Source: Deltaproteobacteria bacterium (GTDB lineage: Bacteria > Desulfobacterota > Syntrophia > Syntrophales > Smithellaceae). From it: 64,000 nucleotides of DNA. Below, one piece after another: positions 1 to 61,108 of the stretch. How positions within the stretch are numbered: position 1 is the first letter of the stretch; every line of letters starts with the position of its first letter. The notes beneath the pieces are model-generated. The model did not search any database. It worked only from the letters and a program-made list of their open reading frames with translations, and was not told the DNA's origin. Location: the NCBI GenBank assembly GCA_012729055.1, contig JAAYDW010000056.1:5691-69690 (forward strand). The letters are read 5' to 3'. The translations under genes were made by a program, and so were the position numbers.

Positions 1-720
1 TTTACATCGCATGAAATGATGAAGCGCCTCAACGCCAAGATTTACGCGGAGGCGAAACGCCTGGGCGTCAAATGGATTCTGGGCGGCGAATGCGGCCACA
101 TGTGGCGGGTTATCCACCAGTACATGGATACGATGAACGGCCCTGCGGACTTCCTTGAAGAGCCGGTCTCCCCGATCACGGGTACGCGTTTTGAAAATGC
201 GCGCTCGACCAAAATGGTGCACATCGTCGAGTTCACGGCGGACCTGATTCAAAACGGCCGCCTGAAGCTCGACCCGTCCCGCAACGACCACATCAGGCTG
301 ACGTTTCACGATTCGTGCAACCCGGCCCGGGCCATGGGGCTTTTCGAAGAGCCGCGCTACATCATTGCAAACACCTGCAACCATTTTTACGAAATGGCCG
401 AAGACACGATCCGGGAAAAAACTTTCTGCTGCGGCGCGGGCGCGGGACTGGGCAATGACGAAAATATGGAGATGCGGATGCGCGGCGGCATGCCGCGGGC
501 GATGGCCGTGCGCGACGTCGTGCAAAAGCACGGGGTCAACCGCCTGGGCTGCATCTGCGCCATCGATCGGGCGACGCTGCCGCCGCTCATGGACTACTGG
601 GTGCCGGGCGTTGCGGTGACGGGCGTTCATGAACTTCTGGGCAACGCCCTGGTCATGAAAGGCGAGAAAGAAAGAACGACGGATTTGCGGGGCGACGAGA
701 TATCAGCCCCCTCACCCTGA
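1..720 (+). CDS. dsrK: DsrK-like (HdrD-type) Fe-S/CCG-domain subunit of the DsrMKJOP complex; C-terminal part, open at the window 5' edge
   Basis: The frame is open from nt 1, with no stop before the ATG at 16. It carries the CCG-domain motif TFCCGAGAG plus HDSCNP. It is followed by dsrJ, dsrO and dsrP in the canonical order. Confidence 0.8.
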   Translation, partial: FTSHEMMKRLNAKIYAEAKRLGVKWILGGECGHMWRVIHQYMDTMNGPADFLEEPVSPITGTRFENARSTKMVHIVEFTADLIQNGRLKLDPSRNDHIRLTFHDSCNPARAMGLFEEPRYIIANTCNHFYEMAEDTIREKTFCCGAGAGLGNDENMEMRMRGGMPRAMAVRDVVQKHGVNRLGCICAIDRATLPPLMDYWVPGVAVTGVHELLGNALVMKGEKERTTDLRGDEISAPSP

Positions 721-742
721 CCCTCTCCCACGTGGGAAGAGG

Positions 743-784
743 GTGAATGGTGAATGGTGAATAGTGGATGGTGGATGGTGGATG
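743..784. repeat. Tandem heptanucleotide repeat, six copies (GTGAATG x2, GTGAATA, GTGGATG x3), in the dsrK-dsrJ spacer
   Basis: Read directly: gtgaatg gtgaatg gtgaata gtggatg gtggatg gtggatg. It is preceded by the near-palindrome ccctctcccacgtgggaagaggg (721-743). Confidence 0.9.
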
Positions 785-832
785 GGGTGCAGCTCGTAGC
801 TCGTCGCTGAACGTAGGCATATTACGGAATGT

Positions 833-1240
833 ATGAAGATGAAACAACATAAATGGGGCTTGATATTTCTGGGATTGGCGATTTTCGTCATCGGGGTGAC
901 GTTTCCCTTCTGGTACGGCAAGGGGAAGTCGACGCCGCCCGTGCTCAGTCTGGAGACGCCTGAAATCGCCGGACTGGCCCGGAAAGAATGCGTCGAGGAC
1001 AAGGCCTTCATGCGCTCCGACCACATGAAGATGCTCAAGGCCTGGCGCGACGAAGCCGTCCGCGAGGGAAAGCGCGTGTACACGGCCAAAGACGGCCGGA
1101 CGTTCGAAAAGAGCCTCACCGGCAGTTGTCTTCAGTGCCACAGCAATAAGGAACAGTTCTGCGACCGCTGCCACACCTATGTGGGCGCGGCGCCCTCCTG
1201 CTTTGACTGCCACATCGTTCCCGGGGAGGTAAAAAAATGA
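833..1240 (+). CDS. dsrJ: DsrJ, periplasmic triheme cytochrome c of DsrMKJOP
   Basis: 135 aa with an N-terminal membrane anchor. Three CxxCH motifs are present (CLQCH, CDRCH, CFDCH), plus a conserved upstream Cys (KECVED). Its stop overlaps the dsrO start (ATGA). Confidence 0.85.
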   Translation: MKMKQHKWGLIFLGLAIFVIGVTFPFWYGKGKSTPPVLSLETPEIAGLARKECVEDKAFMRSDHMKMLKAWRDEAVREGKRVYTAKDGRTFEKSLTGSCLQCHSNKEQFCDRCHTYVGAAPSCFDCHIVPGEVKK

Positions 1241-2019
1241 CGACAAAACGCAGAGACTTTTTGAAAATCGCGGGAGCCTCCGCCCTGACGCTGCTGGCGC
1301 CGTCGCTTTTTGGTCCTGCCTGGGCCGAAGACGCGATTGTGATTCCGCCGGGCCGGGCTTCCGGGCCGACGCCGGCGCTTTCGGCCAGGCGCTGGGCCAT
1401 GGCGATTGATGCATCCCGGTGTAAGGAGGGATGCACGGACTGCATTACCGCCTGCCACGCGGTTCACAATGTGCCCGACTTCAGCAACCCCAAAGACGAA
1501 GTCAAGTGGATCTGGAACGAGCCTTTTTCTTCTGTGTTTCCGGCGGAGGATCACCCCCACCAGGGAAAGGCGATTCAAAATCTCAGAATTCCCGTCTTGT
1601 GCAATCACTGCGACAATCCGCCCTGCGTCCGGGTGTGTCCGACCGGCGCCACCTTTTCGCGGCCCGACGGCATCGTCATGATGGACTATCACCGCTGTAT
1701 CGGCTGCCGGCTGTGCATGGCTGCCTGCCCCTACGGCGCACGGAGTATGAACTTCCGCAACCCGCGGCCGTTTATCGCGAAGATCAATCCGGATTTTCCG
1801 ACGCGCGCGAAAGGCGTCGTGGAGAAGTGCAACTTCTGCGAAGAGCGTCTGGCCAAGGGCATGATTCCGGCCTGTGTTCTGGCCTGCAAAGAAAAAGCCA
1901 TTGTGTTTGGCGATATGGAAGATCCGCGCTCGGAGATTCGCCTGCTCATGGAAACTCGATTTAGCCTGCGAAGACGGGCCCATCTGGGCACCGCGCCGCA
2001 GATTTATTATATCCTGTGA
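1237..2019 (+). CDS. dsrO: DsrO, periplasmic 4Fe-4S ferredoxin-like subunit with a Tat signal
   Basis: Twin-arginine signal MTTKRRDFLKIAGASALT...AWA. Several CxxCxxCxxxCP-type cluster motifs are present (CNHCDNPPCVRVCP, CIGCRLCMAACP). A GGGGAGG RBS lies upstream. Confidence 0.85.
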   Translation: MTTKRRDFLKIAGASALTLLAPSLFGPAWAEDAIVIPPGRASGPTPALSARRWAMAIDASRCKEGCTDCITACHAVHNVPDFSNPKDEVKWIWNEPFSSVFPAEDHPHQGKAIQNLRIPVLCNHCDNPPCVRVCPTGATFSRPDGIVMMDYHRCIGCRLCMAACPYGARSMNFRNPRPFIAKINPDFPTRAKGVVEKCNFCEERLAKGMIPACVLACKEKAIVFGDMEDPRSEIRLLMETRFSLRRRAHLGTAPQIYYIL

Positions 2020-2026
2020 GGATGCC

Positions 2027-3211
2027 ATGCTGGAAAAAGCTTTACACGGCCGCCGCGGATACTGGATTTGGATCGCCTGTTTGATCCTCGTTGCCGCCGT
2101 CGGATTTTTCTTTTATCTGCGCCAGCTGGATTACGGCCTGGGCATCACGGGCATGAGCCGCGACGTATCCTGGGGGCTTTACATCGCCCAGTTCACCTTC
2201 CTGGTCGGCGTGGCCGCCTCGGCCGTGATGCTGGTGCTGCCTTACTATCTGCACGACTACAAGGCGTTCGGCAAAATCACCGTTCTGGGCGAATTTCTGG
2301 CCGTGGCGGCCGTCGTCATGTGCATCCTCTTCGTTTTCGTCGATCTCGGCCGGCCCGCCCGCGTGCTGAATGTACTCCTGCATCCGCAGCCGGCTTCCAT
2401 TCTCTTTTGGGACATGGTCGTTCTTTCCGGCTACCTGCTCATCAACATCGTAACCGGCTGGGTCATTTTGTCCTGCACGAAAAAGGAAATTCCGCCGCCT
2501 TCCTGGGTCAAGCCGATCATCTACCTGTCGATTCCCTGGGCGATCAGCATTCATACGGTCACCGCCTTCATTTACGCCGGTCTGCCCGGCCGCAGCTTCT
2601 GGCTGACCGCGATCATGGCGCCCCGGTTCCTCGCGTCCGCTTTTGCCTCGGGGCCGGCGCTGCTCATCCTCGTTTGCCTGATTCTCCGGCGCTGGGGAGG
2701 CTTCGACGCGGGGGAAAAAGCGATCCAGGCGTTGGCGAAAATCGTCGCCTACGCGCTTGCCGTGAGCCTCTTCTTCGTCGGCGTGGAACTGTTTACCGCT
2801 TTCTACAGCGGCATTCCGGAGCACGAGGCGCAGTTTATTTATCTGTTTGCCGGGCTGCACGGCCACTCCGGCCTGGTCGGCTGGATGTGGGCCTTTGCGG
2901 TGCTGGCCGCAGGAGCGCTGGCGGCGCTGTTGATTCCAGGCCTTCGCAAACAGGAAAAATGGCTGGCGCCGGCCTGCGTGGCCGTGTTTGCATCGCTCTG
3001 GATCGAAAAAGGTCTGGGCCTGGTCATTCCCGGCTTCATTCCGTCGCCGCTGGAGGCCATGACCGAATACCATCCGACGGGACCGGAAATCGCGATTACC
3101 CTGGGCGTGTGGGCGGTCGGATTTTTGATCCTGACGGCGTTTTATAAAATTTTCACGGCGGTCCGCGGCGCTGCATCCATGCCTGCCGGACCGACTGCCG
3201 GCGGGAGATGA
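2027..3211 (+). CDS. dsrP: DsrP, NrfD/PsrC-family integral membrane quinone-interacting subunit
   Basis: Polytopic hydrophobic protein of about 394 aa, starting at the ATG at 2027 just after the dsrO stop. Its position and family fit dsrP. Confidence 0.8.
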   Translation: MLEKALHGRRGYWIWIACLILVAAVGFFFYLRQLDYGLGITGMSRDVSWGLYIAQFTFLVGVAASAVMLVLPYYLHDYKAFGKITVLGEFLAVAAVVMCILFVFVDLGRPARVLNVLLHPQPASILFWDMVVLSGYLLINIVTGWVILSCTKKEIPPPSWVKPIIYLSIPWAISIHTVTAFIYAGLPGRSFWLTAIMAPRFLASAFASGPALLILVCLILRRWGGFDAGEKAIQALAKIVAYALAVSLFFVGVELFTAFYSGIPEHEAQFIYLFAGLHGHSGLVGWMWAFAVLAAGALAALLIPGLRKQEKWLAPACVAVFASLWIEKGLGLVIPGFIPSPLEAMTEYHPTGPEIAITLGVWAVGFLILTAFYKIFTAVRGAASMPAGPTAGGR

Positions 3212-3224
3212 AAAGAGCGTTCTT

Positions 3225-4418
3225 ATGAATATACTGGTTTTGAATTGCGGCAGCTCCTCGCTCAAATACAAGCTTTTTGAGATGACGACGTACGAGGTTC
3301 TGGCGAAAGGCCAGGCGGACCGCATCGGTTTGCCCGGGGCGCTCTTTACGCACGAGACGCCGGGATTGGCGCCTGTTCAATGCGAGACGCCTCTGGCCGA
3401 TCATGCCGCGGCGGTAAGTGCCCTGCTCACCCATCTGGCCGATGCCAGGCAGGGCATTCCGGCGGACCGCAGCGACATCGCCGGTGTCGGGCACCGCGTG
3501 GTGCACGGCGGAGAGCATTTCCGCTCGTCCGTGGTCGTGGATCCGGCCGTGCGCGGCCTTCTGGAGAAAACCAAAGCGCTCGCGCCGCTGCACAATCCGC
3601 CGAACCTCATGGGCATCGACGTCTGCGCGCGGCTGATGCCGGACGTGCCGCAGGTGGCGGTTTTCGATACAGCCTTTCACCAGACGATGGAGCCGCGCGC
3701 CTTTACGTACGCGATTCCCTACCGGTACTACGCCGAGGATGCGGTCCGCCGCTACGGATTCCACGGCACGTCCCACCGCTACGTCGCCGCCCGGACCGCG
3801 GAGCTTCTGGCCGGCCGCAGCGGGGATCCGAGAATCATCACCTGCCATCTCGGAGCCGGCTCCAGCCTCTGCGCCGTGGCGAAAGGAAAATCCCGGGACA
3901 CCTCCATGGGCTTCACGCCGCTTTCGGGACTCGTCATGGGCACGCGTTCGGGCGATCTCGATCCGGCGGTGGTCTCCTTCCTGATGGAAAAAGAGCGCTG
4001 CTCGATTGCGGAAGCGCTGGACATTTTAAACCGGCAAAGCGGCGTTTTCGGCATTTCCGGCGTCTCTCCCGATTTTCGCGATCTGGAGCAGGAAGCGGCC
4101 CGGGGGCACGAGCGGGCGCGCCTGGCGCTGGATGTCTTCGCCTACAGCGCGGCGCGGGGCATTGCGTCTTTGATTCCGGCCGCGGGCGGTCTGGACGCCC
4201 TGGCCTTTACCGCGGGCATCGGCGAAAACTCGCCGGTGATGCGCCTGCGCATCTGCGCGTATTTCTCGTGGCTGGGGCTTAAGCTGGATGAGGACAAAAA
4301 CAACGCCGGCGGCGAAGGAGATATTGCGGCCGGCGAATCGGCCGTCCGCGTGTTCGTCGTGCCGACGGACGAGGAAAAAATGATCGCCCGGGAGACTGAG
4401 GCGGTTTTGAAAAAATAA
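3225..4418 (+). CDS. ackA: Acetate kinase
   Basis: N-terminus MNILVLNCGSSSLKYKLF, plus the HRVVHGG, APLHNP, FDTAFHQTM and RRYGFHGTSH motifs. Length is 397 aa. Confidence 0.95.
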   Translation: MNILVLNCGSSSLKYKLFEMTTYEVLAKGQADRIGLPGALFTHETPGLAPVQCETPLADHAAAVSALLTHLADARQGIPADRSDIAGVGHRVVHGGEHFRSSVVVDPAVRGLLEKTKALAPLHNPPNLMGIDVCARLMPDVPQVAVFDTAFHQTMEPRAFTYAIPYRYYAEDAVRRYGFHGTSHRYVAARTAELLAGRSGDPRIITCHLGAGSSLCAVAKGKSRDTSMGFTPLSGLVMGTRSGDLDPAVVSFLMEKERCSIAEALDILNRQSGVFGISGVSPDFRDLEQEAARGHERARLALDVFAYSAARGIASLIPAAGGLDALAFTAGIGENSPVMRLRICAYFSWLGLKLDEDKNNAGGEGDIAAGESAVRVFVVPTDEEKMIARETEAVLKK

Positions 4419-4423
4419 ATATG

Positions 4424-4452
4424 AAAAGGCCTCTGCGGAGGAGAAGCCTTTT
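4424..4452 (+). terminator. Possible intrinsic terminator after ackA
   Basis: AAAAGGC...GCCTTTT stem with an inner CTC/GAG pairing, ending in a T-run 6 nt after the ackA stop. Confidence 0.45.
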
Positions 4453-4493
4453 GCCTGACAATAACGAACGACTGAAGATTTTGGAGGTTAAAT

Positions 4494-6257
4494 ATGGAAA
4501 AAGTAAAAATGACGCCCAGTGAGGCGATTGTCGAAACCCTGCTGGCCGAAGGCGTGGACCATGTCTGCGGCATTGTCGGCTCGGCCTTTATGGACATGCT
4601 GGATCTCTTTCCGACGGCCGGGATCAAATTCATTCCTGTGCGCCACGAGCAAAGCGCCGCGCACATGGAAGACGCCTACTGCCGCGTGTCCGGGCGCTGC
4701 GGCGTCGTCACGGGCCAGAACGGACCCGGCATCACCAACATGGTCACCTCCGTGGCGGCGGCCAACATGGGCCACACGCCGCTGGTGATCATCTCTCCGT
4801 CGGCGGGAACGCCGACCATCGGCTGGGACGGCTTTCAGGAATGCGACCAGATGTCCGTCTTCCGCTCCATTACGAAAGCGGTCGTTCGCGTTCCGCATCC
4901 GAAGCGGGCGGCAGACTGTCTGCGCACCGCCTTCCGCATCGCCTACGCGGATCGGGGCGCCGTCCTGTACGACATTCCGCGGGACTATTTCTACGGCGAG
5001 CTCGAGGAGAAAATCCTCAAGCCCTCGCAGTACCGCGTGGACGCGCGGGGCTGCGGCTCCATCGAACAGCTGGACCGGGCCGCCGAACTTCTCGCGAAGG
5101 CGAAAAATCCCGTCATCGTTTCCGGAAGGGGCGTGGTCGATTCCGACGCGCTGGAGATCGTCAAAGCCATTGCCGAGCATCTGACGGCGCCGGTGGCCGT
5201 GACCTACCTGCACAACGACGCGTTTTACGGCGACCATCCCCTGTTTGTCGGCCCCATCGGCTACATGGGGTCCAAGGCGGCCATGAAAACGCTGGCCAAG
5301 GCCGACGTCATGCTGGCCATCGGCACACGGCTTTCCGTCTTCGGCACGCTGCCGCAGTACGACATCAACTACTTCCCGGAAAATGCGAAGATCATCCAGG
5401 TGGACGTGAATCCCAAGCATATCGCCCGCACCCACCCCATCGAAGTCGGCATCATCGGCGACGCCAGGGAAGCCTCCGCGGAAATTCTGAAGCGGCTCAA
5501 GGCCAAGGACGGCAAGCGCAAGCCGGATGAGAAGCGCCTGGCGGCGGTGGCCAGGGAGAACAAGAAATGGCAAAAGGAAATCGTCGATCTGGCGATGGCG
5601 GACGGCAATCCCGTCAATCCCCGCCGCGTGCTCCTCGAGCTGTCCCGGGCGCTGCCCCAGGACGCCATCGTAACGACGGACATCGGCAATGTCTCCTCGA
5701 CGGCCAACAGCTACCTGACGTTCAACCGTCCGCGCCAGCATATCGCGGCGCTCACGTTCGGCAACACGGGCTTTGCCTATCCCGCGGCGCTGGGCGCGCA
5801 GCTGGCGCGCCCCGAGGCGCCGGTGGTCGCCATCATCGGCGACGGCGCCTGGGGAATGAGCCTGCATGAAGTGAGCACGGCCGTGGAGCACAACCTGCCC
5901 GTCGTGGCCTGCGTCTTCCGCAACATGTGGTGGGGCGCCGAGGCCAAAAACCAGGTGGACTTTTACAACAACCGTTTTGTCGGCGTCGATATTCCCAATC
6001 CGGAAAGTTTCGTTCCCGTCGCCAAGGCGATGGGCGCCAACGCCATGCAGGTCAGCCGGCCGCAGGATATCCGCGAGGCCTTTGACGCCTGCCTGAAGAG
6101 CCGCCGGCCTACCGTCCTCGAATTTTTGGTGGACGGCAAGCAGCTGGCGCCGCCTTTCCGCAAGGACGCGCTGGCCCTGCCGACGCGCTTCCTGCCCAAG
6201 TACGCCCATCTGGACCATCGCCGCTGGTATCATGAAGGAGGAGCTGATGATTTATAA
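4494..6257 (+). CDS. xsc: Sulfoacetaldehyde acetyltransferase-like ThDP enzyme (Xsc family)
   Basis: 587 aa. The N-terminus [42 protein letters not shown] and the blocks [54 protein letters not shown] and [23 protein letters not shown] resemble Xsc as I recall it, more than AHAS or Gcl. A GGAGG RBS lies 7 nt upstream. Confidence 0.75.
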
Positions 6258-7086
6258 TGATCTGAAAGAAAAAACGGCCGTCGTGACCGGCGCCGGCAAG
6301 AAAACCGGCATCGGCTTTGCCATTGCAAAGAAGCTTGCCGCTTCGGGCTGCAACATTGTCGTCGCGGATCTGGGCAAGCCCCCCGTGCCGGGGGAATCCC
6401 TGAAATCGGCGACCAGCGAAGAAATGAAGGAGATCGCCGGCGAACTGGCACGGACCTGCGGCGTGCGGACGCTGGCCGTGGCCGTGGACGTCACGGATAA
6501 TTCGGCGATAGCGGCGATGGTGGAAATCATCAAGGGCACTTTCGACCATATCGACATTCTCTGCAACAATGCGGGCGCGTCTTTCGGCGTTCCGAACACC
6601 GTGCTGGGATATGACGAAGCGGCCTGGCTCAAGACTATCGACGTGAACCTCTTTTCGGTTTTCCGCATGTCGCGGGCCGTCATTCCGCTCATGGCGGGGA
6701 AGCCGGCGGCCATCGTCAACACGGCGTCACGGGCGGGCAAGGTGCCGCCCATCTTCAACAGCGCCTACGCGGTCGCCAAGGCGGGCGTGATCATGCTCAC
6801 CAAGACGATGGCCAAAGAGCTCGGAGGAAGCGGCATCCGCGTGAACGCCATCTGTCCGGGGCAGATTGCTACGGACCTGGAAAAATGGCGGTTCGGCCTC
6901 GAGGCGTCCTTCCTGGGAACGACTGTCGAGGCGCAGGAAAAGGAAATGTGCAAAACCATTCCGCTGGGCTACATCGGCCCGCCCGCCGAAGCCGCGGAGC
7001 TCGCCGTCTTTCTGGCGTCCGACGCCTCGCGCTACATCACGGGGCAGGCGATCAACGTGGACGGCGGACAGTGCATGGAATTGTAA
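6247..7086 (+). CDS. Short-chain dehydrogenase/reductase (SDR), substrate unknown
   Basis: [10 protein letters not shown] cofactor motif, NNAG, and the YAVAK (YxxxK) catalytic motif. The ATG at 6247 is preferred over 6232 because AGGAGG lies 5 nt upstream of it. Confidence 0.85.
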
Positions 7087-7123
7087 AATAATAACGCTTT
7101 TTGAAATAGAGGAGGATATATTC

Positions 7124-8821
7124 ATGGATAACATTATCGGCGGCAAGCTCGTTGCGGATGCCCTGGTCGATCGGGGCGTCGATTACATCTTTTCGCTGAG
7201 CGGCGGGCACATCACGCCCATCTATCAGTTTCTGGAAAATACACCGGTTACGCTGTTTGACGTGCGCCACGAACAGGCGGCCGTTTTCATGGCCGAAGCG
7301 CAGGCCCGGATGACGCGCAAACCGGCGGTGGCCATGGTCACGGCCGGTCCCGGCTTCACCAATGCCCTAACCGGCATCGCCAGCGCCCGGCTTTCCAATG
7401 CGCCGGTCGTTCTCATTGCCGGCTGCGTGGGAACCGAGGCGACGGAAAAACTGGACCTGCAGGACATGACCCAGCTTCCCGTCATCGAACCGATGGTGAA
7501 GAAAGCCTTTGTCTGCTACGTGCCGGAGCGAATCCCCGAGTACGTGGACATGGCCTTCCGCGCCGCCATGAGCGGCCGGCCCGGCCCCGTTTACCTGGAA
7601 TTTCCCTGCAACGTCCTGAACGCCAAGGTGGATATGGCTGCGGTCAAGAAGCCCTGCACAACCCTCGCCTCCAAGCCCGTTGACCGGGAGAACACCCGCA
7701 AGGTTGTCGATTTGCTGAAGGCGGCGAAAAACCCGATTGTCATCGGCGGCAGCGGCCTGTGGTATTCCGACGCCGAAAAAGAAGTCATCGAATTCGTGGA
7801 AAAAATCGGTATCCCGATTTACACGGCGGGCGCGGGGCGCGGCGTTATTCCCGATACCCATCCCCTTTGCTTTGAAGGCTCTCTGGCGATCCGTCCCGGT
7901 TCGGCCATGATCACGCTTATGACCACCGACCTGGTTCTTTTCCTGGGCGGCCGTCTGAGCCTGTTCTACATCTTCGGCGAAATTTTTCCGCCGACCGCCA
8001 AATTTATTCAGGTCGACATCGCCCCCGATGAAATCGGACGCAACCGGACCATTGATCTGGGCATCGTCAGCGATGTGAAGTCGTTCCTCAAGGAACTGAA
8101 TGGTCTTCTGGATGAACAAAAAATCAGCGATGCGTTGAAGGCGCAGTATGCGCCCTGGGTGGACACCGTCCGCGCGGCCCATGAGGCCGGCAAACAAGAT
8201 GCCAAAGCCATGTGGGAGTGCGAAACCCTGCCCATGCATCCGATGCGTCTGGCCAATGAGGTCAATAAATTCATGAACCGCGAAGACGATATTGTCGTTG
8301 CCGACGGCGGCGATACCTCGACCTGGATGGGCATGACACGGACCGTTAAAAAGGGCGGCACTTTCCTGGACTATGGCCTTTATGGCTGCCTGGCTGTCGG
8401 TATTCCCTACGCCAACGCGGCCAAGCTGAAGCATCCGGACAAGCGCGTCCTGCTCATCATGGGCGACGGGTCCGCCGGCTTCAACTTCATGGAGTTCCAC
8501 ACGGCGATCCGCAAGAACCTGCCCATCGTGGTGGTCATCGCCAATGACGCCTCCTGGGGCATGATCGCGCACAGCCAGCAGCTTCGACTGGGGCACAACA
8601 TTCCCAACGGCACAGAGCTGGGCTGGGTGGATTATCACAAAATGGTGGAGGTGCTGGGCGGATTCGGCGTGATGGTGGAAAAACCCGAAGACGTCGCGCC
8701 GGCCCTGGAAGCGGCTTTTGCCTCCGGAAAGACGGCTTGTATTAATGTTAAAGTGGATCCCTCTGTGATCAGCCCCGGCAGCGTCGCTCTGGCCAATCTG
8801 GGAGGGTACAAATGTAACTGA
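7124..8821 (+). CDS. ThDP-dependent enzyme of the acetolactate synthase / oxalyl-CoA decarboxylase / 2-hydroxyacyl-CoA lyase superfamily
   Basis: 565 aa. It has RHEQAAVFMAEA, TAGPGFTNALTGIA and the ThDP/Mg motif GDGSAGFNFMEFHTAIRKNLPIVVVIAND. The C-terminus resembles the OXC/HACL type. A GAGGAGGA RBS lies before the ATG at 7124. Confidence 0.85.
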   Translation: MDNIIGGKLVADALVDRGVDYIFSLSGGHITPIYQFLENTPVTLFDVRHEQAAVFMAEAQARMTRKPAVAMVTAGPGFTNALTGIASARLSNAPVVLIAGCVGTEATEKLDLQDMTQLPVIEPMVKKAFVCYVPERIPEYVDMAFRAAMSGRPGPVYLEFPCNVLNAKVDMAAVKKPCTTLASKPVDRENTRKVVDLLKAAKNPIVIGGSGLWYSDAEKEVIEFVEKIGIPIYTAGAGRGVIPDTHPLCFEGSLAIRPGSAMITLMTTDLVLFLGGRLSLFYIFGEIFPPTAKFIQVDIAPDEIGRNRTIDLGIVSDVKSFLKELNGLLDEQKISDALKAQYAPWVDTVRAAHEAGKQDAKAMWECETLPMHPMRLANEVNKFMNREDDIVVADGGDTSTWMGMTRTVKKGGTFLDYGLYGCLAVGIPYANAAKLKHPDKRVLLIMGDGSAGFNFMEFHTAIRKNLPIVVVIANDASWGMIAHSQQLRLGHNIPNGTELGWVDYHKMVEVLGGFGVMVEKPEDVAPALEAAFASGKTACINVKVDPSVISPGSVALANLGGYKCN

Positions 8822-8895
8822 GGTACAATTTATTATGCCGCGACTTTAGGAACGGCCTGACAAGTTGGCCCCTTTTTCCATGACAAGGAGTTCCT

Positions 8896-10194
8896 ATGAA
8901 TAATGTTACCGAACCCAAGGAATACAAGTTGTCTCCGCGAAGCGCCTACTACATCTTCGCCCTCTTGTTTCTCCTGTATTTTTTCGACTACGTCGACCGG
9001 ATGATCGTGACCTCCCTTTTCCCCTTCATCCAAAAGGAGTGGGGGCTGACCGACACCCAGTCCGGATTCCTCGTGTCGATGGTTTACTGGTCCATTGTCG
9101 CTTTTGTGCTTCCTGTTTCGATTTTAGTGGATCGCTGGAGCCGGAAGAAGACCATCGGCATCATGGCCTTTTTATGGAGCATGGCCACGCTGGCCTGCGC
9201 CTTTACCAAAACCTTTCCGCAACTGCTCGCAACCCGGGCGGCCATCGGAATCGGCGAGGCCGGATACGCGCCGGCCGGGACGGCGATGCTTTCGGGGTTG
9301 TTCCCCGAGGAAAAACGGTCGCGTATGATGGGGCTATGGAATATGTCCATCCCTCTCGGAACAGCCGTCGGAATCGGGCTGGGAGGATTCATCGCCGCGC
9401 ACTGGGGATGGCGTCACGCTTTCGGCGTGGTGGCCATTCCCGGGGCGATCGTGGCCCTCCTTTTTTTCTTCGTCAAGGACTACAAGACCGTGGACCTGGT
9501 GAAGACCGATACCGCCTGCACAACCGGTCCCGGTAAAATTAAAATGGGCAAGATGGATATTGTCCGGGAGTTTCTCCGAACCCCTTCCCTGATTTTTACC
9601 AATCTCGGGTTTATCGGCTGCGTCTTCGCCAACAATGCCATCATGGTCTGGCTTCCCACCTATTTTCACCGGACGACGGGCATCCCCATGAGTGAAGCGG
9701 GCATGAAGGTAAGCATGCTCATGGTTCTGGCCATTATCGGGTTGCCTTTGGGAGGGTGGCTGGCAGATATGTGGTTTAAGAAGCGGGCGAATGCGCGGCT
9801 TTTGTTTCCCGCAATTACGTCCATCCTCAATGCCCTCGTTATCTTTATTGCTTTTTCCTTCCTGGAGGGGAAAACGCAGTATTTTACGCTTCTGGGCATG
9901 GGCGTTCTGGCCTCCGCATTTGCCCCGGCTGCGATTATCGCCACCCAGGAGGTTATCCATCCCGGCCTTCGGGCGATCTCGTATTCAGTTTGCGTGATTG
10001 TTCAGAATCTTTTTGGAGCATCGCTGGCGCCCATTGCGATCGGGAAGATCTCCGATCTTTATGGCATCCAGGCAGCCATGTCGATCGTGCCTGTCTTTCT
10101 GGTGATTTCGTCCCTGTTGTTCGTTGCCGGCTCCTTTTTCTACAAGAAGGATCTGGATAATGTGGAAAAGATTGCCCTGGAATGTGAAGATTAA
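8896..10194 (+). CDS. MFS transporter (anion:cation symporter-like)
   Basis: 432 aa with about 12 predicted hydrophobic spans. The MFS loop motif DRWSRKKT lies between TM2 and TM3. An AAGGAG RBS is present. Confidence 0.85.
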   Translation: MNNVTEPKEYKLSPRSAYYIFALLFLLYFFDYVDRMIVTSLFPFIQKEWGLTDTQSGFLVSMVYWSIVAFVLPVSILVDRWSRKKTIGIMAFLWSMATLACAFTKTFPQLLATRAAIGIGEAGYAPAGTAMLSGLFPEEKRSRMMGLWNMSIPLGTAVGIGLGGFIAAHWGWRHAFGVVAIPGAIVALLFFFVKDYKTVDLVKTDTACTTGPGKIKMGKMDIVREFLRTPSLIFTNLGFIGCVFANNAIMVWLPTYFHRTTGIPMSEAGMKVSMLMVLAIIGLPLGGWLADMWFKKRANARLLFPAITSILNALVIFIAFSFLEGKTQYFTLLGMGVLASAFAPAAIIATQEVIHPGLRAISYSVCVIVQNLFGASLAPIAIGKISDLYGIQAAMSIVPVFLVISSLLFVAGSFFYKKDLDNVEKIALECED

Positions 10195-10200
10195 AAAAGA

Positions 10201-10232
10201 CTGTAGGGAACGGTCGCGACCGTTCCCTACAG
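10201..10232. repeat. Perfect 32-nt palindrome (stem-loop or operator) between the MFS and Zn-ADH genes
   Basis: ctgtagggaacggtcg|cgaccgttccctacag reads identically on both strands. It lies 7 nt after the MFS stop and 19 nt before the ADH start. Confidence 0.9.
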
Positions 10233-10250
10233 CGAAGGAAAAAAGGAATC

Positions 10251-11273
10251 ATGAAAGCAGTGGTATTTCGCAAAGGCCGGGGGCTGGTCTACGAAGACGT
10301 CCCCGATTATAAAATAGCCCATGATGAAGTGCTGGTCCGTGTGGCCAATACGGGCTTCTGCGGCTCCGACCATTCGCTGGTGGCCGGCGGACACCTGTCC
10401 GACGGATATATTCTCGGCCATGAAATCAGCGCCGTCGTCGTCGAAAAAGGCGCGGCAGCCTCCGGCCCGCCGGTGGGGACGAGAGTTTGCATCCGACCCA
10501 GCTACTGCGGCCGGTGCATCAACTGCCGGTCCGGTCGGCCGCACCTGTGCCGCGTAGAGAGGCGGACAACGGGCATCGGCGATCTGCCGGGCGGCTTTGC
10601 CCAGTTCGTGAAGGCCTTCGGGCAGATGCTGATTCCCATTCCCGACGGCGTCGATTCGCAAAATGCCGCTCTGGCGGAAACGTTTGCGGCTGCCCTGCAC
10701 GGCATTCACTGCACCAGCGACCGGGCAGGACCGGCGCTGGTCATGGGCGGGGGGCCGATCGGCCTTTGCACCGTGCGCCTTTTGAAAATTCTCGGCTACA
10801 GTCCGGTCGTTCTTTTCGAACCGGTTGCGGTCAAGCGTAACATCGGCGTTTTGTACGGGGCCGATCACGTCTTCGACCCGCTGGAAAAAAACGCGGATCA
10901 GCAGGCGCTTGCGGTTGCTCCCGGAGGCTACCGGAAAATTTTCGAGTGCTCCGGCGTCAAGGCCAACATCAGCCGCGCCGTGCTGCTGGCGGAAGATGCG
11001 GGGGAAATCTGCATCGTCAGCATGATTTTCTCTGCGGTCAGCCTGGAGGCGCCTTTTCTTATCAATCTCAAGGAAATCCGGCTGACGGCTTCCAACTCCA
11101 ACACGCACGAGGAAAACATCCAGTGTCTGCAGTGGATGGCCGAAGGGAAAATCGACGCCCGGCCGCTCATTTCCGATTACGCGCCGCTTTCGCATCTCCC
11201 CGCGCTTTACCGCGAAAGGATCGACACCGGCCTGGCCGTGAAGGTGCTTTTGCAGATCGGCGAGGAATTTTAG
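10251..11273 (+). CDS. Zinc-binding medium-chain alcohol/polyol dehydrogenase (MDR family)
   Basis: GFCGSDH and GHEISAVV zinc-ligand motifs, the structural-zinc Cys cluster CGRCINCRSGRPHLC, and the GGGPIG Rossmann motif. Confidence 0.85.
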   Translation: MKAVVFRKGRGLVYEDVPDYKIAHDEVLVRVANTGFCGSDHSLVAGGHLSDGYILGHEISAVVVEKGAAASGPPVGTRVCIRPSYCGRCINCRSGRPHLCRVERRTTGIGDLPGGFAQFVKAFGQMLIPIPDGVDSQNAALAETFAAALHGIHCTSDRAGPALVMGGGPIGLCTVRLLKILGYSPVVLFEPVAVKRNIGVLYGADHVFDPLEKNADQQALAVAPGGYRKIFECSGVKANISRAVLLAEDAGEICIVSMIFSAVSLEAPFLINLKEIRLTASNSNTHEENIQCLQWMAEGKIDARPLISDYAPLSHLPALYRERIDTGLAVKVLLQIGEEF

Positions 11274-11285
11274 CAGGCGAAGGAA

Positions 11286-11534
11286 ATGTCCGAAAGATAT
11301 GAATTAATTTACGGGTTTGTTCATTGCCGCGGCAAGACCGTGTATTCTGCGGGTTTCGTGGAGACGCGCGAGGAAGCCGAGGCGTGGCTTTTGAAAAACC
11401 GGGAGGCCCGCACGAGAACCGTGAAGGCGCCTCCCGGGGACCCTGTCCGCTCCTGCAGGGCCGCCTTGTGCCCGCTGAAGCGGCAGATGCCCTGGTTTGA
11501 CATCCGCCCCGCCGGCGAAACCGATCCGGCGTAA
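11286..11534 (+). CDS. Hypothetical small protein (82 aa)
   Basis: ORF with a GAAGGAA RBS before the ATG. I recognise no family. It sits between the ADH and TetR genes. Confidence 0.3.
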   Translation: MSERYELIYGFVHCRGKTVYSAGFVETREEAEAWLLKNREARTRTVKAPPGDPVRSCRAALCPLKRQMPWFDIRPAGETDPA

Positions 11535-11682
11535 CGCGGCGCTTTTAAGACGCGGCCCGGGAGGAGAGGTTCGGCGGTCAAATCCGGGAGATGGAAGATT
11601 TTTTTGCTTTAATGGCGTTTGGGTGGTAGATAGCGGGCCATCCCCCGAACGGCAAAACTTACACTGAGGATCGACAGAAATT

Positions 11683-12303
11683 ATGGGCTCCAAGGAAAGA
11701 CGCGAAAGAGAAAGAGAACAACGCAAAAGCAACATCCTGGATACGGCCAGAGAGCTGCTTTTGGAAAAGGGATTGAACTCCACCTCCATCAACCAGATCG
11801 CCAAGCGGGCCGAACTGAGCGTCGGCGCCATCTATTTCTACTACAAGGATAAGGAAGAGCTTTTTGCGGCGCTTCAGCTCGAAGGCCTGGAGCTGCTGCA
11901 TGAAGCCATCCGCAAGGCCGTGGCCAAAAAGGCCGCGCCGGACAAGAAGATCCGGGCCATCGCCATGGCGTATCTGCAGTTCAGCGAGGAGCACAAGAAC
12001 TATTTCGACATCATTAACTACTTTCTCACCTCGCCGGAAACGATCTTTTCTCCCGAATTGAAAAGTGAAATCGACGAACACGGCGACGCCAGCATCGCCA
12101 TGATGACGCTCGCGGTCCAGGAAGGCATCGATGCCGGACTCTTCAAGCCCGTCGATCCGAAAAGGCAGGCGATCATCCTGTGGGCCGCCTTCAACGGCAT
12201 GATCCAGCTCAAGAAGCTGCAAAAGACCATTCTGGCCAAAAACGAATATATTTCTCTCTACGGCGAGATTGTGGACCGCTTCCTCGACGGTCTGCGCGTT
12301 TGA
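11683..12303 (+). CDS. TetR/AcrR-family transcriptional regulator
   Basis: N-terminal HTH (ILDTARELLLEKGLNSTSINQIAKRAELSVGAIYFYYKDKEELF) followed by an all-helical C-terminal domain. Length is 206 aa. Confidence 0.85.
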   Translation: MGSKERREREREQRKSNILDTARELLLEKGLNSTSINQIAKRAELSVGAIYFYYKDKEELFAALQLEGLELLHEAIRKAVAKKAAPDKKIRAIAMAYLQFSEEHKNYFDIINYFLTSPETIFSPELKSEIDEHGDASIAMMTLAVQEGIDAGLFKPVDPKRQAIILWAAFNGMIQLKKLQKTILAKNEYISLYGEIVDRFLDGLRV

Positions 12304-12471: not shown

Positions 12472-12560
12472 TGGTGCCGAAGACTGGACTCGAACCAGCA
12501 CAGGCGTACACCCACTAGACCCTGAACCTAGCGCGTCTACCAATTCCGCCACTTCGGCAC
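12472..12560 (-). tRNA. tRNA-Leu (anticodon CAG), class II with a long variable arm and encoded CCA
   Basis: Reverse complement: GTGCCGAAGTGGCGGAATTGGTAGACGCGCTAGGTTCAGGGTCTAGTGGGTGTACGCCTGTGCTGGTTCGAGTCCAGTCTTCGGCACCA. The 7-bp acceptor stem pairs. The anticodon stem is CTAGG/TCTAG with loop TTCAGGG. The T-loop GGTTCGAGTCC is present. Confidence 0.95.
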
Positions 12561-14809: not shown

Positions 14810-16462
14810 ATGCCCACCGCAACGCCCAAAACGTACGCCCCCGGCGAATGCTACGATTACCAGTTGCTCGTCAAGCACCTGCTGGAGAGCCCGCGCATTT
14901 TTGCGTCCGACCAGGAAATTCTCTACCGCGACCGGTTTCGGATGACCTACCGCGACCTGTTTGCGCGCCTGCGGCGGCTGGCCAACGTCCTGGCCGGCCT
15001 GGGCGTGAAATTCGGCGACACGGTCTGCATGTTCGACTACGATTCCCACCGCTACCTGGAGACTTTCCTGGGCGTTCCGATGATGGGCGCCGTCTTGCAC
15101 ACGCAGAACTGGCGGCTTTCCCCCGAGCAGATCCTCTACACGATGAATCACGCCGAAGATAAGGTTGTCCTCGTCCACGCCGATTTCGTGCCGCTTCTGG
15201 AGCCTTTGTGGCGCAAGCTGACGACGGTGAAAAAATTCATCCTGCTTGCGGACGACTTCAAGACACCGGCCGCGACAATTCCCTTCGCCGGCGAATATGA
15301 AAGCCTGCTTGCCGCGGCCGATCCCGAATACGACTTTCCGGATTTCGACGAACGCACCAAGGCCACCACCTTCTACACCACGGGAACGACGGGATTGCCC
15401 AAGGGCGTTTATTTTTCGCACCGGCAGATCGTTTTGCACACGCAGTCCGGCGTCATCATCCAGGGCGCGTTTGAATCCGTCTGCCGCTTCCGCTCCAACG
15501 ACGTTTACATGCCGCTCACGCCCATGTTCCACGTGCACGCCTGGGGCGTGCCCTACGGCGCGACGCTTCTGGGCGCCAAGCAGGTGTATCCCGGCCGCTA
15601 CGAGCCGGAAACGATTCTCCGGCTGGTGGAAACCGAGCGCGTCACTTACTCGCATTGCGTGCCCACCGTTTTGCAGATGATTCTGAACCATCCGGCCGCC
15701 GCGAAGGCGGATCTCTCGCGCTGGAAGGTCGTCGTCGGCGGAGCGCGCCTCAACAAGGGGCTGGCAGAGGCCGCCGTGAAAAAAGGCATCGAGATTTACG
15801 CGTCCTACGGCATGTCGGAGACCTGTCCGCTGGCCTGCCGCGCCAACCTTAAAACCCCGCTGCTCGGCAAGCCGATGGAGGAGGTGCTGGACTACCTCAT
15901 CATGACGGGGCTTCCCGCGCCGTTTGTTTATGTTCGCCTGTTCGACAAGGAAGGTCGCGAAGTGCCGTCCGACGGCAGATCCCCGGGCGAGGTCTGCCTC
16001 CGCTCCCCCTGGCTTGCCGAAAGCTACTTCAAGGATCCGGAGCGGACGCGCGACCTCTGGCGCGCGGGATGGCTGCACACGGGCGACATCGGTGTCATGA
16101 ATGCCGAGGGCTACCTGCAGGTGACCGACCGGATCAAAGACGTCATCAAAACCGGCGGCGAGTGGATTTCGTCTTTAGACCTCGAAAATCTGCTGAGCCA
16201 GCACGACGCGGTGCTGGAATCCGCGGCCATCGGCGTTTCCGACGCCAAATGGGGCGAGCGGCCCCTGATGCTTGCCGTGCTCAAATCCGCGTACGCGGGT
16301 CGCGTCGGCGAAGCCGAACTGCGTCAGTTTCTGGTGGAAGCCGCGCAACAGGGAAAAATTCCCAAATACGGCGTGCCGGACAAAGTGCGGATTGTCGAAG
16401 CGCTTCCCAAAACCAGCGTGGGCAAAATCAACAAGATCGCCCTCCGGAAAGAGTACCCCTGA
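14810..16462 (+). CDS. AMP-forming acyl-CoA synthetase (fatty-acid--CoA ligase family)
   Basis: 550 aa. AMP-binding motif FYTTGTTGLPKG, plus YGMSE, GDIG and the C-terminal KTSVGKINK. An AAGGAGAGG RBS is present. Confidence 0.9.
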   Translation: MPTATPKTYAPGECYDYQLLVKHLLESPRIFASDQEILYRDRFRMTYRDLFARLRRLANVLAGLGVKFGDTVCMFDYDSHRYLETFLGVPMMGAVLHTQNWRLSPEQILYTMNHAEDKVVLVHADFVPLLEPLWRKLTTVKKFILLADDFKTPAATIPFAGEYESLLAAADPEYDFPDFDERTKATTFYTTGTTGLPKGVYFSHRQIVLHTQSGVIIQGAFESVCRFRSNDVYMPLTPMFHVHAWGVPYGATLLGAKQVYPGRYEPETILRLVETERVTYSHCVPTVLQMILNHPAAAKADLSRWKVVVGGARLNKGLAEAAVKKGIEIYASYGMSETCPLACRANLKTPLLGKPMEEVLDYLIMTGLPAPFVYVRLFDKEGREVPSDGRSPGEVCLRSPWLAESYFKDPERTRDLWRAGWLHTGDIGVMNAEGYLQVTDRIKDVIKTGGEWISSLDLENLLSQHDAVLESAAIGVSDAKWGERPLMLAVLKSAYAGRVGEAELRQFLVEAAQQGKIPKYGVPDKVRIVEALPKTSVGKINKIALRKEYP

Positions 16463-20492: not shown

Positions 20493-22157
20493 TCATTTAC
20501 GCTTGCGGAGTTCCATCTCTTCGTCGCGCAGCATCCGCCGCAAAACCTTGCCGACGGCCGACTGGGGAAGGGCCGGCCGAAATTCAATCGTTTTGGGCAC
20601 TTTGTACGCCGCAAGCTTTTCCCGGCAAAACGCGATGATCTCTTCCGGCGCGGCTTGCTCCCCGCTTTTCAGAACAACAAAAGCCTTCACGGTTTCTCCC
20701 CGGTAATCGTCAGGAACGCCGACGGCGATGGCATCCCGGACTTTGGGATGCTGGTGCAGCACTTCGTCGATTTCCCGCGGATAAATGTTGAAGCCGCCGG
20801 CGATGATCATGTCTTTCTTGCGGTCGATGATAAAAAAGTATCCGTCCTCATCCTGGGTTGCAATATCCCCCGTATGCAGCCAGCCGTCCCGGATCTGCAA
20901 CGCCGTTTCTTCGGGCATATTCCAGTAGCCTCCGGTTACGGTGGGGCCTTTGATCACCATTTCGCCCGGCTGGCCCTGAGGGACTTCTTCTGTTCCGGAA
21001 TCAAGATCGACCAGACGCACATCCGTGTCGATGACGGGAATTCCGATGCTGCCGACTTTGGAAAGACCCAGGATGGGATTTTGCGTTCCCGCGCAGCACG
21101 TTTCGCTCATCGACCATCCTTCGCCGAAATAGATGCCCATATCTTTGATGCGATGAATCGTTTCCACGGGGATGGGAGCGCCGCCCGAGTTGAGCATGCC
21201 TAGTTTCTTATCGAGTCTCAACGCCTCCGCCCGGGGGTGGGAAATGACCGCGTTGATCATGGTCGGAACGGTGGGGAATAATAAAATCTCCCTGTACTTC
21301 GCGAGCGTGTCCATCATTTCGTCGGGTTGAAACTGGGGGACTAAAATTTGCGTGGCGCAATTGAAAACAGACATGTTGATGATCGCGATATTGCCGTAAA
21401 TATGGAAGAAAGGAATCGCCCCGAGAAAGCAGCGGCGCTCCGGCGGCGTCAATTGGGCGATGGGACTGATCCAGAGGGACTGTCCGATCGTCGCCGAGAT
21501 CACGTTGCCGTGGCTGAGGACGGCTCCCTTGGGCACGCCGGTCGTTCCGCCGGTGAACTGAATCAGGGCCGGATCGGTTGGAGCAATGGCCACGCGGGGA
21601 CGCCGGGTGGCGGTGCAGCCGGCCAGCACCGCTGAAAAATAAAGCCAGCCTTTTTCCAGCTCCGGCGGTTTGGCCGCCGTTTCTTTTGCTCCGGCATAGT
21701 CGTTCAACCGGGTGACAATGACGCGCTTGATCTCCACACGCTGGCAGAGTTTTGCGACAGTGGATGCGGCCGTGTCGATCGTGAAGAGCAGCGAAATGCC
21801 GGTGCTGTTGAAAACCCCTTCCAATTCGTCGGGTTTATAAATGGGATTGAGATTGACGACAATGGCCCCCAGGGAGAGCGCGGCATAATACGCGATGATG
21901 TACTGAGGGCAGGTGGGCAGGTGCAGTCCGATGCGATCGCCTTTTTGCACGCCCAGGCCGGTCAGGGCATTGGCCATGCGCAGCACCTGCTGGCGCAATT
22001 CCCAGAACGTTATCTCTCTTTCCAGGAAGTGGATCGCCGCTTTGTCGGGATAGGCATTCGATGGGATCTGCAGAAGATCCGCCACGGATATTTGCGGCGG
22101 CCGTAAGGACGTCGGAACATTATAATCGTAAAATCGATGCCAGGGTTTCTGGGCCAT
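20493..22157 (-). CDS. AMP-forming acyl-CoA synthetase
   Basis: Motifs QFTGGTTGVPKG, GEGWSMSE, TGDIA and PQSAVGKVLRR. The start is placed at MAQKPWHRFYDYNVP, which has a GGGAGGGAAAG RBS. Confidence 0.9.
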   Translation of the reverse strand: MAQKPWHRFYDYNVPTSLRPPQISVADLLQIPSNAYPDKAAIHFLEREITFWELRQQVLRMANALTGLGVQKGDRIGLHLPTCPQYIIAYYAALSLGAIVVNLNPIYKPDELEGVFNSTGISLLFTIDTAASTVAKLCQRVEIKRVIVTRLNDYAGAKETAAKPPELEKGWLYFSAVLAGCTATRRPRVAIAPTDPALIQFTGGTTGVPKGAVLSHGNVISATIGQSLWISPIAQLTPPERRCFLGAIPFFHIYGNIAIINMSVFNCATQILVPQFQPDEMMDTLAKYREILLFPTVPTMINAVISHPRAEALRLDKKLGMLNSGGAPIPVETIHRIKDMGIYFGEGWSMSETCCAGTQNPILGLSKVGSIGIPVIDTDVRLVDLDSGTEEVPQGQPGEMVIKGPTVTGGYWNMPEETALQIRDGWLHTGDIATQDEDGYFFIIDRKKDMIIAGGFNIYPREIDEVLHQHPKVRDAIAVGVPDDYRGETVKAFVVLKSGEQAAPEEIIAFCREKLAAYKVPKTIEFRPALPQSAVGKVLRRMLRDEEMELRKRK

Positions 22158-22251
22158 TGCTTTCCCTCCCGATTTTTTCCCAGAACACCATAGAGGAGAA
22201 AAAGACGCAACAGTCAAAGACCGGTCATGTAATGGTCATTGAAATAGACCA

Positions 22252-44510: not shown

Positions 44511-44533
44511 GACTGTTCCTCAGGCCTGAATTC

Positions 44534-45862
<1,329 letters not shown>

Positions 45863-45864
45863 GA

Positions 45865-46263: not shown

Positions 46264-46285
46264 TACGAAATCTCCTTGAAAAAAA

Positions 46286-61058: not shown

Positions 61059-61108
61059 GCGTAAGCTCTCCTTCCTGCGGGCGGCGCGAGCGTCACCCTT
61101 TCTGCTCC

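Follow-up and report, generated by a model that had tools for sequence, protein, structure and literature searches.

A dsr-linked xsc-ackA module in a Smithellaceae genome and a candidate route from organosulfonates to sulfide

Genes of the array

The stretch of Smithellaceae DNA analysed here (contig JAAYDW010000056.1, positions 5,691 to 69,690; 64,000 nucleotides, hereafter the window) opens inside dsrK and runs through dsrJ, dsrO and dsrP into eight further genes, all on the plus strand downstream of dsrP: the acetate kinase gene ackA, the sulfoacetaldehyde acetyltransferase gene xsc, and genes for a short-chain dehydrogenase/reductase (SDR), a second thiamine diphosphate (ThDP) enzyme that we call ThDP2, a major facilitator superfamily (MFS) permease, a zinc-dependent alcohol dehydrogenase (Zn-ADH), the small protein orf82 and a TetR-family regulator. 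Genes were identified from a map of open reading frames combined with NCBIfam (curated equivalog cut-offs) and Pfam scans of the window proteins. A preliminary description of this DNA had listed the same eight genes, and each was found on the plus strand where that description had placed it; the true start of ThDP2 is refined to the ATG at 7124, which is preceded by a GAGGAGG ribosome-binding site.

1..720, plus strand: 3' part of dsrK (NF045796 DsrK, 321 bits over profile positions 245-445); its start lies upstream of the window, and the full gene on the public contig L086 encodes 536 aa
833..1240, plus strand: dsrJ (NF038038, 151 bits, cut-off 100)
1237..2019, plus strand: dsrO (NF045797, 301 bits, cut-off 200)
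2027..3211, plus strand: dsrP (NF045798, 474 bits, cut-off 350; 394 aa as called on L086)
3225..4418, plus strand: ackA, acetate kinase (TIGR00016, 446 bits, cut-off 293, residues 1-392 covered; PF00871)
4424..4452, plus strand: hairpin in the ackA/xsc gap, 11-nt arms, 91% complementary, followed by a short T run
4494..6257, plus strand: xsc, 587 aa (TIGR03457, 844.9 bits, cut-off 676.4; NF005713, 842.8 bits, cut-off 620)
6232 or 6247..7086, plus strand: classical SDR dehydrogenase (PF13561, PF00106), its start overlapping the xsc stop
7124..8821, plus strand: ThDP2, 565 aa, three TPP_enzyme domains
8896..10194, plus strand: MFS permease, organic-anion-transporter-like (PF07690, 188 bits; best NCBIfam model TIGR00893, under its cut-off)
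10201..10232, no strand: perfect 32-nt palindrome in the MFS/Zn-ADH gap, halves CTGTAGGGAACGGTCG and CGACCGTTCCCTACAG
10251..11273, plus strand: Zn-ADH, a polyol/threonine-type dehydrogenase and the second dehydrogenase of the module (PF08240, PF00107)
11286..11534, plus strand: orf82, small His/Cys protein of 82 aa, conserved
11683..12303, plus strand: TetR-family regulator (PF00440 and TetR_C_33)
12472..12558, minus strand: tRNA-Leu(CAG), directly after tetR

The window edge cuts through a longer array. An exact-sequence look-up of the window DsrJ found L086, a public contig of 425,760 bp that is 99.98% identical to window positions 1-11240 and carries, on the same strand and 5' of the window start, dsrA, dsrB, dsrD, dsrN, dsrC, dsrM'K', dsrM and dsrK. 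Contig and window together give 20 co-directional genes over ~21 kb from dsrA to tetR, in the order dsrA-B-D-N-C, dsrM'K', dsrM-K-J-O-P, ackA, xsc, SDR, ThDP2, MFS, Zn-ADH, orf82 and tetR. A gap of 13 nt separates the dsrP stop from the ackA ATG, intergenic gaps on L086 range from -26 to 112 nt from dsrA through Zn-ADH, and these overlaps and short gaps imply that the array is co-transcribed. A dissimilatory sulfite reductase, which the preliminary description had presumed to be encoded elsewhere in the genome, is instead found directly upstream on the same strand, as part of dsrABDNC.

The five subunits of DsrMKJOP are encoded contiguously, with DsrJ, DsrO and DsrP above cut-off and a partial DsrK in the window, and DsrM and the full DsrK on L086. 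The dsr genes of L086 match the Pfam families NIR_SIR, DsrD and DsrC, and their DsrA, DsrB and DsrC products are 86-94% identical to counterparts in the related locus L029 that pass TIGR02064, TIGR02066 and TIGR03342. The C-terminal CX10C motif of DsrC is present in five related loci, and the array includes DsrD, a marker of reductive-type Dsr systems. The dsrABDNC-dsrM'K'-dsrMKJOP layout is also found in L083, L090 and L085, and because L085 overlaps L043 by 2026 identical bases, dsrAB and the module share one contig of the metagenome-assembled genome (MAG) HGW-Deltaproteobacteria-12. Housekeeping genes occupy the window from 12.6 to 64 kb, where no further sulfur genes were found.

The dsrM'K' pair (L086 4713-7258) is a divergent second copy lying between dsrC and dsrMKJOP; DsrK' is ~31% identical to DsrK, and the pair is kept in at least 15 related loci. 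Just 5' of dsrA, a membrane protein of the PF03601 family (YeiH / putative sulfate exporters) is encoded at L090 3213-4658 and at L084/L085 7194-8297, and in L084/L085 a YeiE-like LysR regulator gene stands between it and dsrA.

By its sequence and the curated cut-off, the 587-aa protein is a true Xsc (TIGR03457 / EC 2.3.3.15). The best acetolactate-synthase model gives 405 bits and the glyoxylate carboligase model 270 bits, both below cut-off, and the profile comparison with acetohydroxyacid synthase and Gcl, set beforehand, did not cluster the protein with either. In a residue table for the pyruvate-oxidase family, the entries for Xsc are Glu510 and Gln125 (E510 and Q125 of Q84H41) (PMC13327070). 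The window protein carries both residues: its WWGAE segment aligns with SWGMI of ThDP2, which places the Glu at the position of T481 in benzaldehyde lyase (BAL), and the Gln lies in GFQE. The Xsc-like assignment of the preliminary description is borne out, as is the adjacency of AckA, whose TIGR00016 score is well over its cut-off. The chemistry of the Xsc family is established: sulfoacetaldehyde and phosphate are converted to acetyl phosphate and sulfite. In L011 (7763-9109) xsc lacks its middle domain and in L043 (7903-9116) there is no xsc between ackA and SDR; either gene decay or assembly error would account for these defects.

The hairpin at 4424..4452 is a possible weak terminator or attenuator. 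In L014, L047 and L079 the corresponding gap carries the core motif of the palindrome at 10201-10232, a motif with a single copy in the window; the palindrome may act as an operator or, as a hairpin, stabilise RNA. Downstream, the region is closed by the minus-strand tRNA-Leu gene, followed by ribF and asd. A genomic island at this tRNA gene (12472-12558) was considered and rejected, because both the ribF-asd boundary downstream and the dsr genes upstream are conserved across the family. The interval from tetR to ribF differs in length among relatives, which have between 0 and ~3 kb of additional genes there (in L001, for example, flotillin/NfeD).

Conservation and reassembly of the module

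A one-genome-per-species scan with the ThDP2 alignment yielded 80 loci, mostly from Smithellaceae/Syntrophaceae MAGs and including nine labelled Spirochaetota or Leptospirales, onto which the window proteins and dsrA, B, N, C and M were mapped. The full-flank set comprises 27 species-level loci of what we term group A, each flanked on either side by 9 kb or more. Within it, SDR-ThDP2 and a transporter are present in all 27 loci, a second dehydrogenase in 24, TetR and orf82 in 22 each, xsc in 21 and ackA in 19; 20 loci have one or more dsr genes within 10 kb. SDR adjoins ThDP2 in almost every locus (all but one with enough flank), and in four spirochaete loci (L059, L053-L055) xsc lies between them. 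The preliminary description had grouped the two dehydrogenases with the transporter; enzymes of these types are indeed present, but the conserved core is the SDR-ThDP2 pair rather than both dehydrogenases.

At least four architectures occur across the lineages. The dsrMKJOP genes may stand upstream, as in the window; dsrA-B-N-C may follow directly after tetR (L021, L032, L034, L037 and L038); dsrAB and ackA-xsc may diverge, with a LysR gene between them (L029); or, in spirochaetes, the order is xsc-ackA-(orf82)-SDR-ThDP2-MFS-SDR-TetR and dsrMKJOP, in one orientation or the other, flanks the opposite side. Curated models confirm DsrA, DsrB and DsrC in L029 and DsrA and DsrC in L034. The synteny of module and dsr genes raised in the preliminary description is conserved, though reassembled in different orders. 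The arrangement, seen again across dozens of species-representative genomes, did not come about by chance.

Scores of 770 and 757 bits put the spirochaete Xsc proteins above the cut-off. Their identity to the window Xsc is only ~50%, compared with 70-74% for ThDP2 and 70-76% for DsrK, and because Xsc has diverged so much further than ThDP2 the spirochaete xsc appears to have been separately recruited. Unrelated proteins of the same type also take one another's place: an SBF/BASS transporter replaces the MFS permease in about 12 related loci, and an unrelated SDR replaces Zn-ADH in spirochaete and some Syntrophales loci. Repeated reassembly, such replacements and the different Xsc lineage together argue for selection on a functional unit and not for an inherited neighbourhood. 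A TauE/SafE sulfite exporter is encoded beside xsc in L028.

Between dsrP and ackA, six relatives (L001 4405-6099, L010, L013, L014, L023 and L024) encode a 564-aa pyridine-nucleotide-disulfide oxidoreductase with a C-terminal rhodanese domain, a protein of CoA-disulfide or persulfide-reductase type that is absent from the window.

The SDR-ThDP2 pair and its partners

ThDP2 falls under every NCBIfam cut-off, the best model being PRK05858 (413 against 587 bits), followed by 2-hydroxyacyl-CoA lyase (HACL; NF058623, 339.8 against 600), oxalyl-CoA decarboxylase (OXC; NF006721, 301.4 against 557, and TIGR03254, 283.6 against 739) and Xsc (246 against 676). Against the PDB it scores 284 bits with the 2-hydroxyacyl-CoA lyase/synthase (HACS) and OXC structures and 264 bits with BAL. 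The alignment with BAL is near gap-free over residues 3-557 at ~31% identity, and identity to HACS is ~30%. The catalytic His29 and Gln113 of BAL are kept in ThDP2 and are invariant in the family alignment, and the cofactor Glu50 is also kept; HACS has Pro at the His29 position. The aromatic donor-pocket residues Ala480 and Phe484 of BAL are Met480 and Ser484 in ThDP2, which has Ile at the BAL-T481 position where Xsc has Glu. The AlphaFold model of ThDP2, built from a shallow alignment, was poor (pLDDT 64), and Foldseek placed HACS, HACL, BAL and OXC all at TM ~0.45, with no discrimination among them.

By these sequence comparisons ThDP2 is neither Xsc nor acetolactate synthase and is best described as an uncharacterised sister of BAL, HACL and OXC. 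It shares the three-domain pyruvate-oxidase-family fold of Pseudomonas fluorescens BAL (PDB 2AG0) and of HACL/HACS (PDB 8VZA and 7PT1), but forms a tight family of its own that is at least 66% identical across all 80 loci and two phyla and, with few exceptions, has SDR as its partner. Among 81 related loci no CoA ligase or transferase gene recurs near the module, and only L034 has acetyl-CoA transferase-family genes nearby. We treat ThDP2 as a putative catalyst acting on a free 2-oxo compound made by SDR; it may work in a BAL-like manner yet is not classed as a BAL.

The nearest solved relatives of Zn-ADH in the PDB search are threonine, iditol, idonate and butanediol dehydrogenases, with (R,R)-butanediol and polyol types included, and it is clearly not of the HpsN (histidinol-dehydrogenase) type. 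Family matches of SDR include meso-2,3-butanediol dehydrogenase, and for the MFS permease only generic relatives, with no sulfonate-specific family, were returned by the NCBIfam and PDB searches.

The orf82 protein is conserved in 45 loci, in either orientation and never outside the module. Neither Pfam nor NCBIfam gives a match to it, and it has only 33 homologue clusters, all unannotated, among 5.8 billion proteins. Its predicted model is confident (pLDDT 82) but has no fold match in the PDB; residues H13, C14, C57 and C62 are invariant, and the protein may bind metal.

Sixteen of the loci (L065-L080, group B) have a ThDP2 that is ~66% identical and an SDR-ThDP2 pair without xsc or dsr neighbours. 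Their neighbours encode a LarAH10-family 2-hydroxyacid racemase (606 bits, cut-off 540), a TRAP transporter, further SDRs, and PanB-like and HpaB-like proteins. By gene content these paralogous clusters encode a predicted hydroxy-acid pathway that shares the SDR-ThDP2 step. The combination of racemase, dehydrogenase and ThDP enzyme follows the logic of the mandelate pathway, in which a racemase and a dehydrogenase precede the ThDP-dependent benzoylformate decarboxylase, and suggests as substrate a chiral 2-hydroxyacid, with oxidation to the 2-oxoacid followed by decarboxylation; the enzyme families are unrelated. Where group B combines the racemase with SDR and ThDP2, the window cluster has a second dehydrogenase instead, and by analogy this enzyme could play the racemase's part in xsc-linked clusters. 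Two dehydrogenases likewise serve sulfolactate in Chromohalobacter.

Only five positions in ThDP2 and two in SDR consistently distinguish the xsc-linked pairs from those of group B, one of the ThDP2 positions being Y417S, which aligns with His415 of BAL; no sulfonate-binding Arg or Lys signature emerged from this comparison. In the group B example L068 (2036-14069), the TRAP transporter, LarAH10 racemase, PanB-like protein, three SDRs and ThDP2 are accompanied by an HpaB/4-hydroxybutyryl-CoA-dehydratase-like protein and a PycB/OadA-like subunit.

Proposed pathway, alternatives and known systems

Taking gene content and synteny together, we consider it probable that the region is the catabolic half of one organosulfonate-to-sulfide respiration array, combining sulfonate import, sulfite release with ATP formation, and sulfite respiration. 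The MFS permease, or SBF/BASS in other species, would import a hydroxylated sulfonate anion, SDR would oxidise its 2-hydroxyl to the 2-oxo level, and the accessory second dehydrogenase would probably act on the opposite enantiomer. The BAL/HACL-like ThDP2 would then cleave the carbon next to the carbonyl and release sulfoacetaldehyde, which Xsc would convert with phosphate to acetyl phosphate and sulfite; AckA would draw ATP and acetate from acetyl phosphate. DsrAB with DsrC would reduce the sulfite, DsrMKJOP (with DsrM'K') would link DsrC to the quinone pool, and TetR probably senses the sulfonate or an intermediate. The likeliest substrate path would run from 3-sulfolactate to 3-sulfopyruvate and on by decarboxylation. 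As the most economical reading within this scheme, and sulfolactate being a 2-hydroxyacid, we tentatively favour 3-sulfolactate as the substrate, by way of sulfopyruvate and sulfoacetaldehyde, with somewhat less than even confidence.

A further proposal, on which we are evenly divided, is that SDR-ThDP2 constitutes a previously unknown route to sulfoacetaldehyde, either as a BAL/HACL-clade sulfopyruvate decarboxylase replacing ComDE or as a lyase that breaks a C-C bond in an oxidised C3 sulfonate, and that the array makes Smithellaceae and some Spirochaetota dedicated organosulfonate respirers that turn sulfoquinovose-derived C3 sulfonates into sulfide in methanogenic, sulfate-poor habitats.

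A number of observations weigh against the proposed pathway. Neither SDR nor Zn-ADH has a sulfonate-specific model or structure among its top NCBIfam and PDB matches, which are generic relatives only, and ThDP2 is presumably not homologous to the known sulfopyruvate decarboxylase ComDE. Six of the 27 full-flank loci lack xsc, including those that lie directly beside dsrAB. The group B pair has nearly the same conserved residues with no xsc or dsr nearby; the chemistry of SDR-ThDP2 is thus not intrinsically tied to sulfonates, and by sequence the pair may act on a non-sulfonated compound. The Dsr genes may serve ordinary sulfate reduction as well, and the locus counts are not counts of independent events, the genomes being MAGs and many of them related.

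The main alternative to sulfolactate is a vicinal-diol sulfonate of the 2,3-dihydroxypropane-1-sulfonate (DHPS) type, oxidised at C2 and then cleaved in the BAL manner. SDR and Zn-ADH would act as stereo-complementary butanediol-type 2-dehydrogenases giving 3-hydroxy-2-oxopropanesulfonate, and ThDP2 as an acyloin lyase giving sulfoacetaldehyde and formaldehyde. The near gap-free BAL alignment with its retained His29 and Gln113 and the butanediol/polyol dehydrogenases among the relatives of both dehydrogenases speak for this route, and HpsO and HpsP of aerobic DHPS degraders make the same ketone. We nevertheless judge it unlikely: no formaldehyde-handling gene recurs in any locus, the LarA-type racemase of group B needs an alpha-hydroxy acid, which DHPS is not, and Ala480 and Phe484 of BAL are replaced by Met and Ser. 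It is also improbable that ThDP2 itself desulfonates, adding to a 2-oxo-3-sulfonate (e.g. sulfopyruvate, with decarboxylation) so that the enamine expels sulfite and leaves acetyl-ThDP, with Xsc serving as a parallel entry for C2 sulfonates and not as the downstream step. Such a role would suit L021, L032, L034, L037 and L038, where SDR-ThDP2-transporter-TetR stands directly beside dsrABNC with no xsc upstream (2 kb examined in L037, 10 kb in the other four), and L043, where ackA-SDR-ThDP2 has no intervening xsc. In those loci, however, xsc may sit elsewhere in the genome; in 21 of the 27 full-flank loci it is adjacent, overlapping the start of SDR, and ThDP2 has Ile at the Glu site of Xsc.

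More doubtful still is a pathway for a non-sulfur hydroxy acid or polyol, served by SDR, ThDP2, the transporter, the dehydrogenase and TetR, with xsc, ackA and dsr nearby through inherited synteny without functional coupling. The almost identical SDR-ThDP2 active-site residues of group B, which has no sulfur genes, and the generic family matches of SDR, ADH and MFS agree with it, but linkage to xsc and/or dsr has been rebuilt in at least four gene orders, in two phyla and with a different Xsc lineage, the overlaps and short gaps imply co-transcription, and by a rough estimate a random 20-kb neighbourhood would hold a dsr locus ~1% of the time. The best PDB sequence and fold matches of ThDP2 (HACS, HACL and OXC) and two acetyl-CoA hydrolase/transferase genes upstream of SDR in L034 would accord with a CoA-dependent 2-hydroxyacyl-CoA lyase that splits sulfolactyl-CoA into formyl-CoA and sulfoacetaldehyde. 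We give this reading very little credence, since the HACL and OXC models score far under cut-off (340 against 600; 301 against 557), no CoA ligase or transferase recurs from locus to locus, the aligned HACS lacks His29, which is characteristic of BAL, and the invariant SDR would be left without a role. Among other substrates, a taurine route was rejected because neither aminotransferase nor alanine dehydrogenase genes recur at any of the loci, and an isethionate-only route because it leaves the invariant ThDP2 without a role.

The proposed sulfolactate chemistry is the same as that of Roseovarius nubinhibens, which reportedly, in the 2009 work of Denger et al., converts sulfolactate to sulfopyruvate, decarboxylates this with ComDE to sulfoacetaldehyde and CO2, and then uses Xsc to form acetyl phosphate and sulfite. 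Roseovarius, however, is aerobic, employs ComDE (another ThDP family), SlcD/ComC and Pta, and excretes or oxidises its sulfite, whereas in the present array the dehydrogenases and the candidate decarboxylase are of unrelated families and the sulfite would be respired. In Bilophila wadsworthia, as proposed here, released sulfite is reduced by DsrAB; there it comes from the glycyl-radical isethionate sulfite-lyase IslAB, while the present array has no glycyl-radical enzyme or activase and would cleave the C-S bond through ThDP-dependent Xsc, giving acetyl phosphate and substrate-level ATP.

The closest precedent is Taurinivorans muris, in which taurine respiration by Tpa, Ald, Xsc and AckA feeding DsrAB-DsrC is experimentally established (PMC10507020). 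Both systems would share an oxygen-insensitive Xsc, ATP formation from acetyl phosphate by AckA and sulfite respiration through Dsr in an anaerobic Desulfobacterota host. The present array differs in having no aminotransferase or alanine dehydrogenase, so that sulfoacetaldehyde would have to come from SDR and the BAL/HACL-like ThDP enzyme, in the fusion of its genes into the dsr array, and in its hosts, which are Smithellaceae/Syntrophales and Spirochaetota MAGs from environmental habitats. PMC10507020 also cites Xsc as supporting taurine fermentation in Desulfonispora, and MAGs that carry both xsc and dsrAB have been described (PMC12019592). Within the limited literature covered, searches turned up no account of xsc in Smithella/Syntrophales, of dsr operons joined to xsc, or of sulfonate catabolism that uses a BAL/HACL-like enzyme. 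Fusion at the operon level, these hosts and the SDR-ThDP2 step appear to be new, and the strategy of Xsc-fed sulfite respiration known. The preliminary description had seen a different wiring in the Xsc/AckA-dsr linkage; what is new in it is the operon-level fusion and the hosts and not the concept, which T. muris already embodies.

If the proposed pathway holds, Smithellaceae/Syntrophales and some Spirochaetota would be widespread uncultured organisms converting sulfonates to sulfide, and this sulfide would feed a cryptic sulfur cycle competing with methanogenesis. Sulfolactate, DHPS and isethionate derived from plant sulfolipid form a large and poorly tracked sulfur pool in sulfate-scarce freshwater sediments, peat and digesters. 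Smithellaceae are known as a fermentative group and as textbook obligate syntrophs, and the array would give organisms so classed a respiratory option. It would also illustrate very clearly how the operon of a respiratory reductase can be joined to the pathway supplying its electron acceptor, with SDR, ThDP2 and orf82 as a well-defined candidate for a new ThDP-dependent step in sulfonate catabolism.

Elsewhere in the window there are several acyl-CoA / ADP-forming acetyl-CoA synthetase-type genes (14810-16462, 28417-29898, 52965-54332 and 55529-57166 on the plus strand; 20493-22217 on the minus strand), glycine-cleavage genes (43062-47377) and selA (49517-50932), a set that fits a fatty-acid-degrading syntroph using selenoproteins. 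A 500-aa protein encoded on the minus strand at 59610-61112 joins ankyrin repeats to a Kunitz/BPTI protease-inhibitor domain, a eukaryote-like pairing that is unusual for a bacterium.

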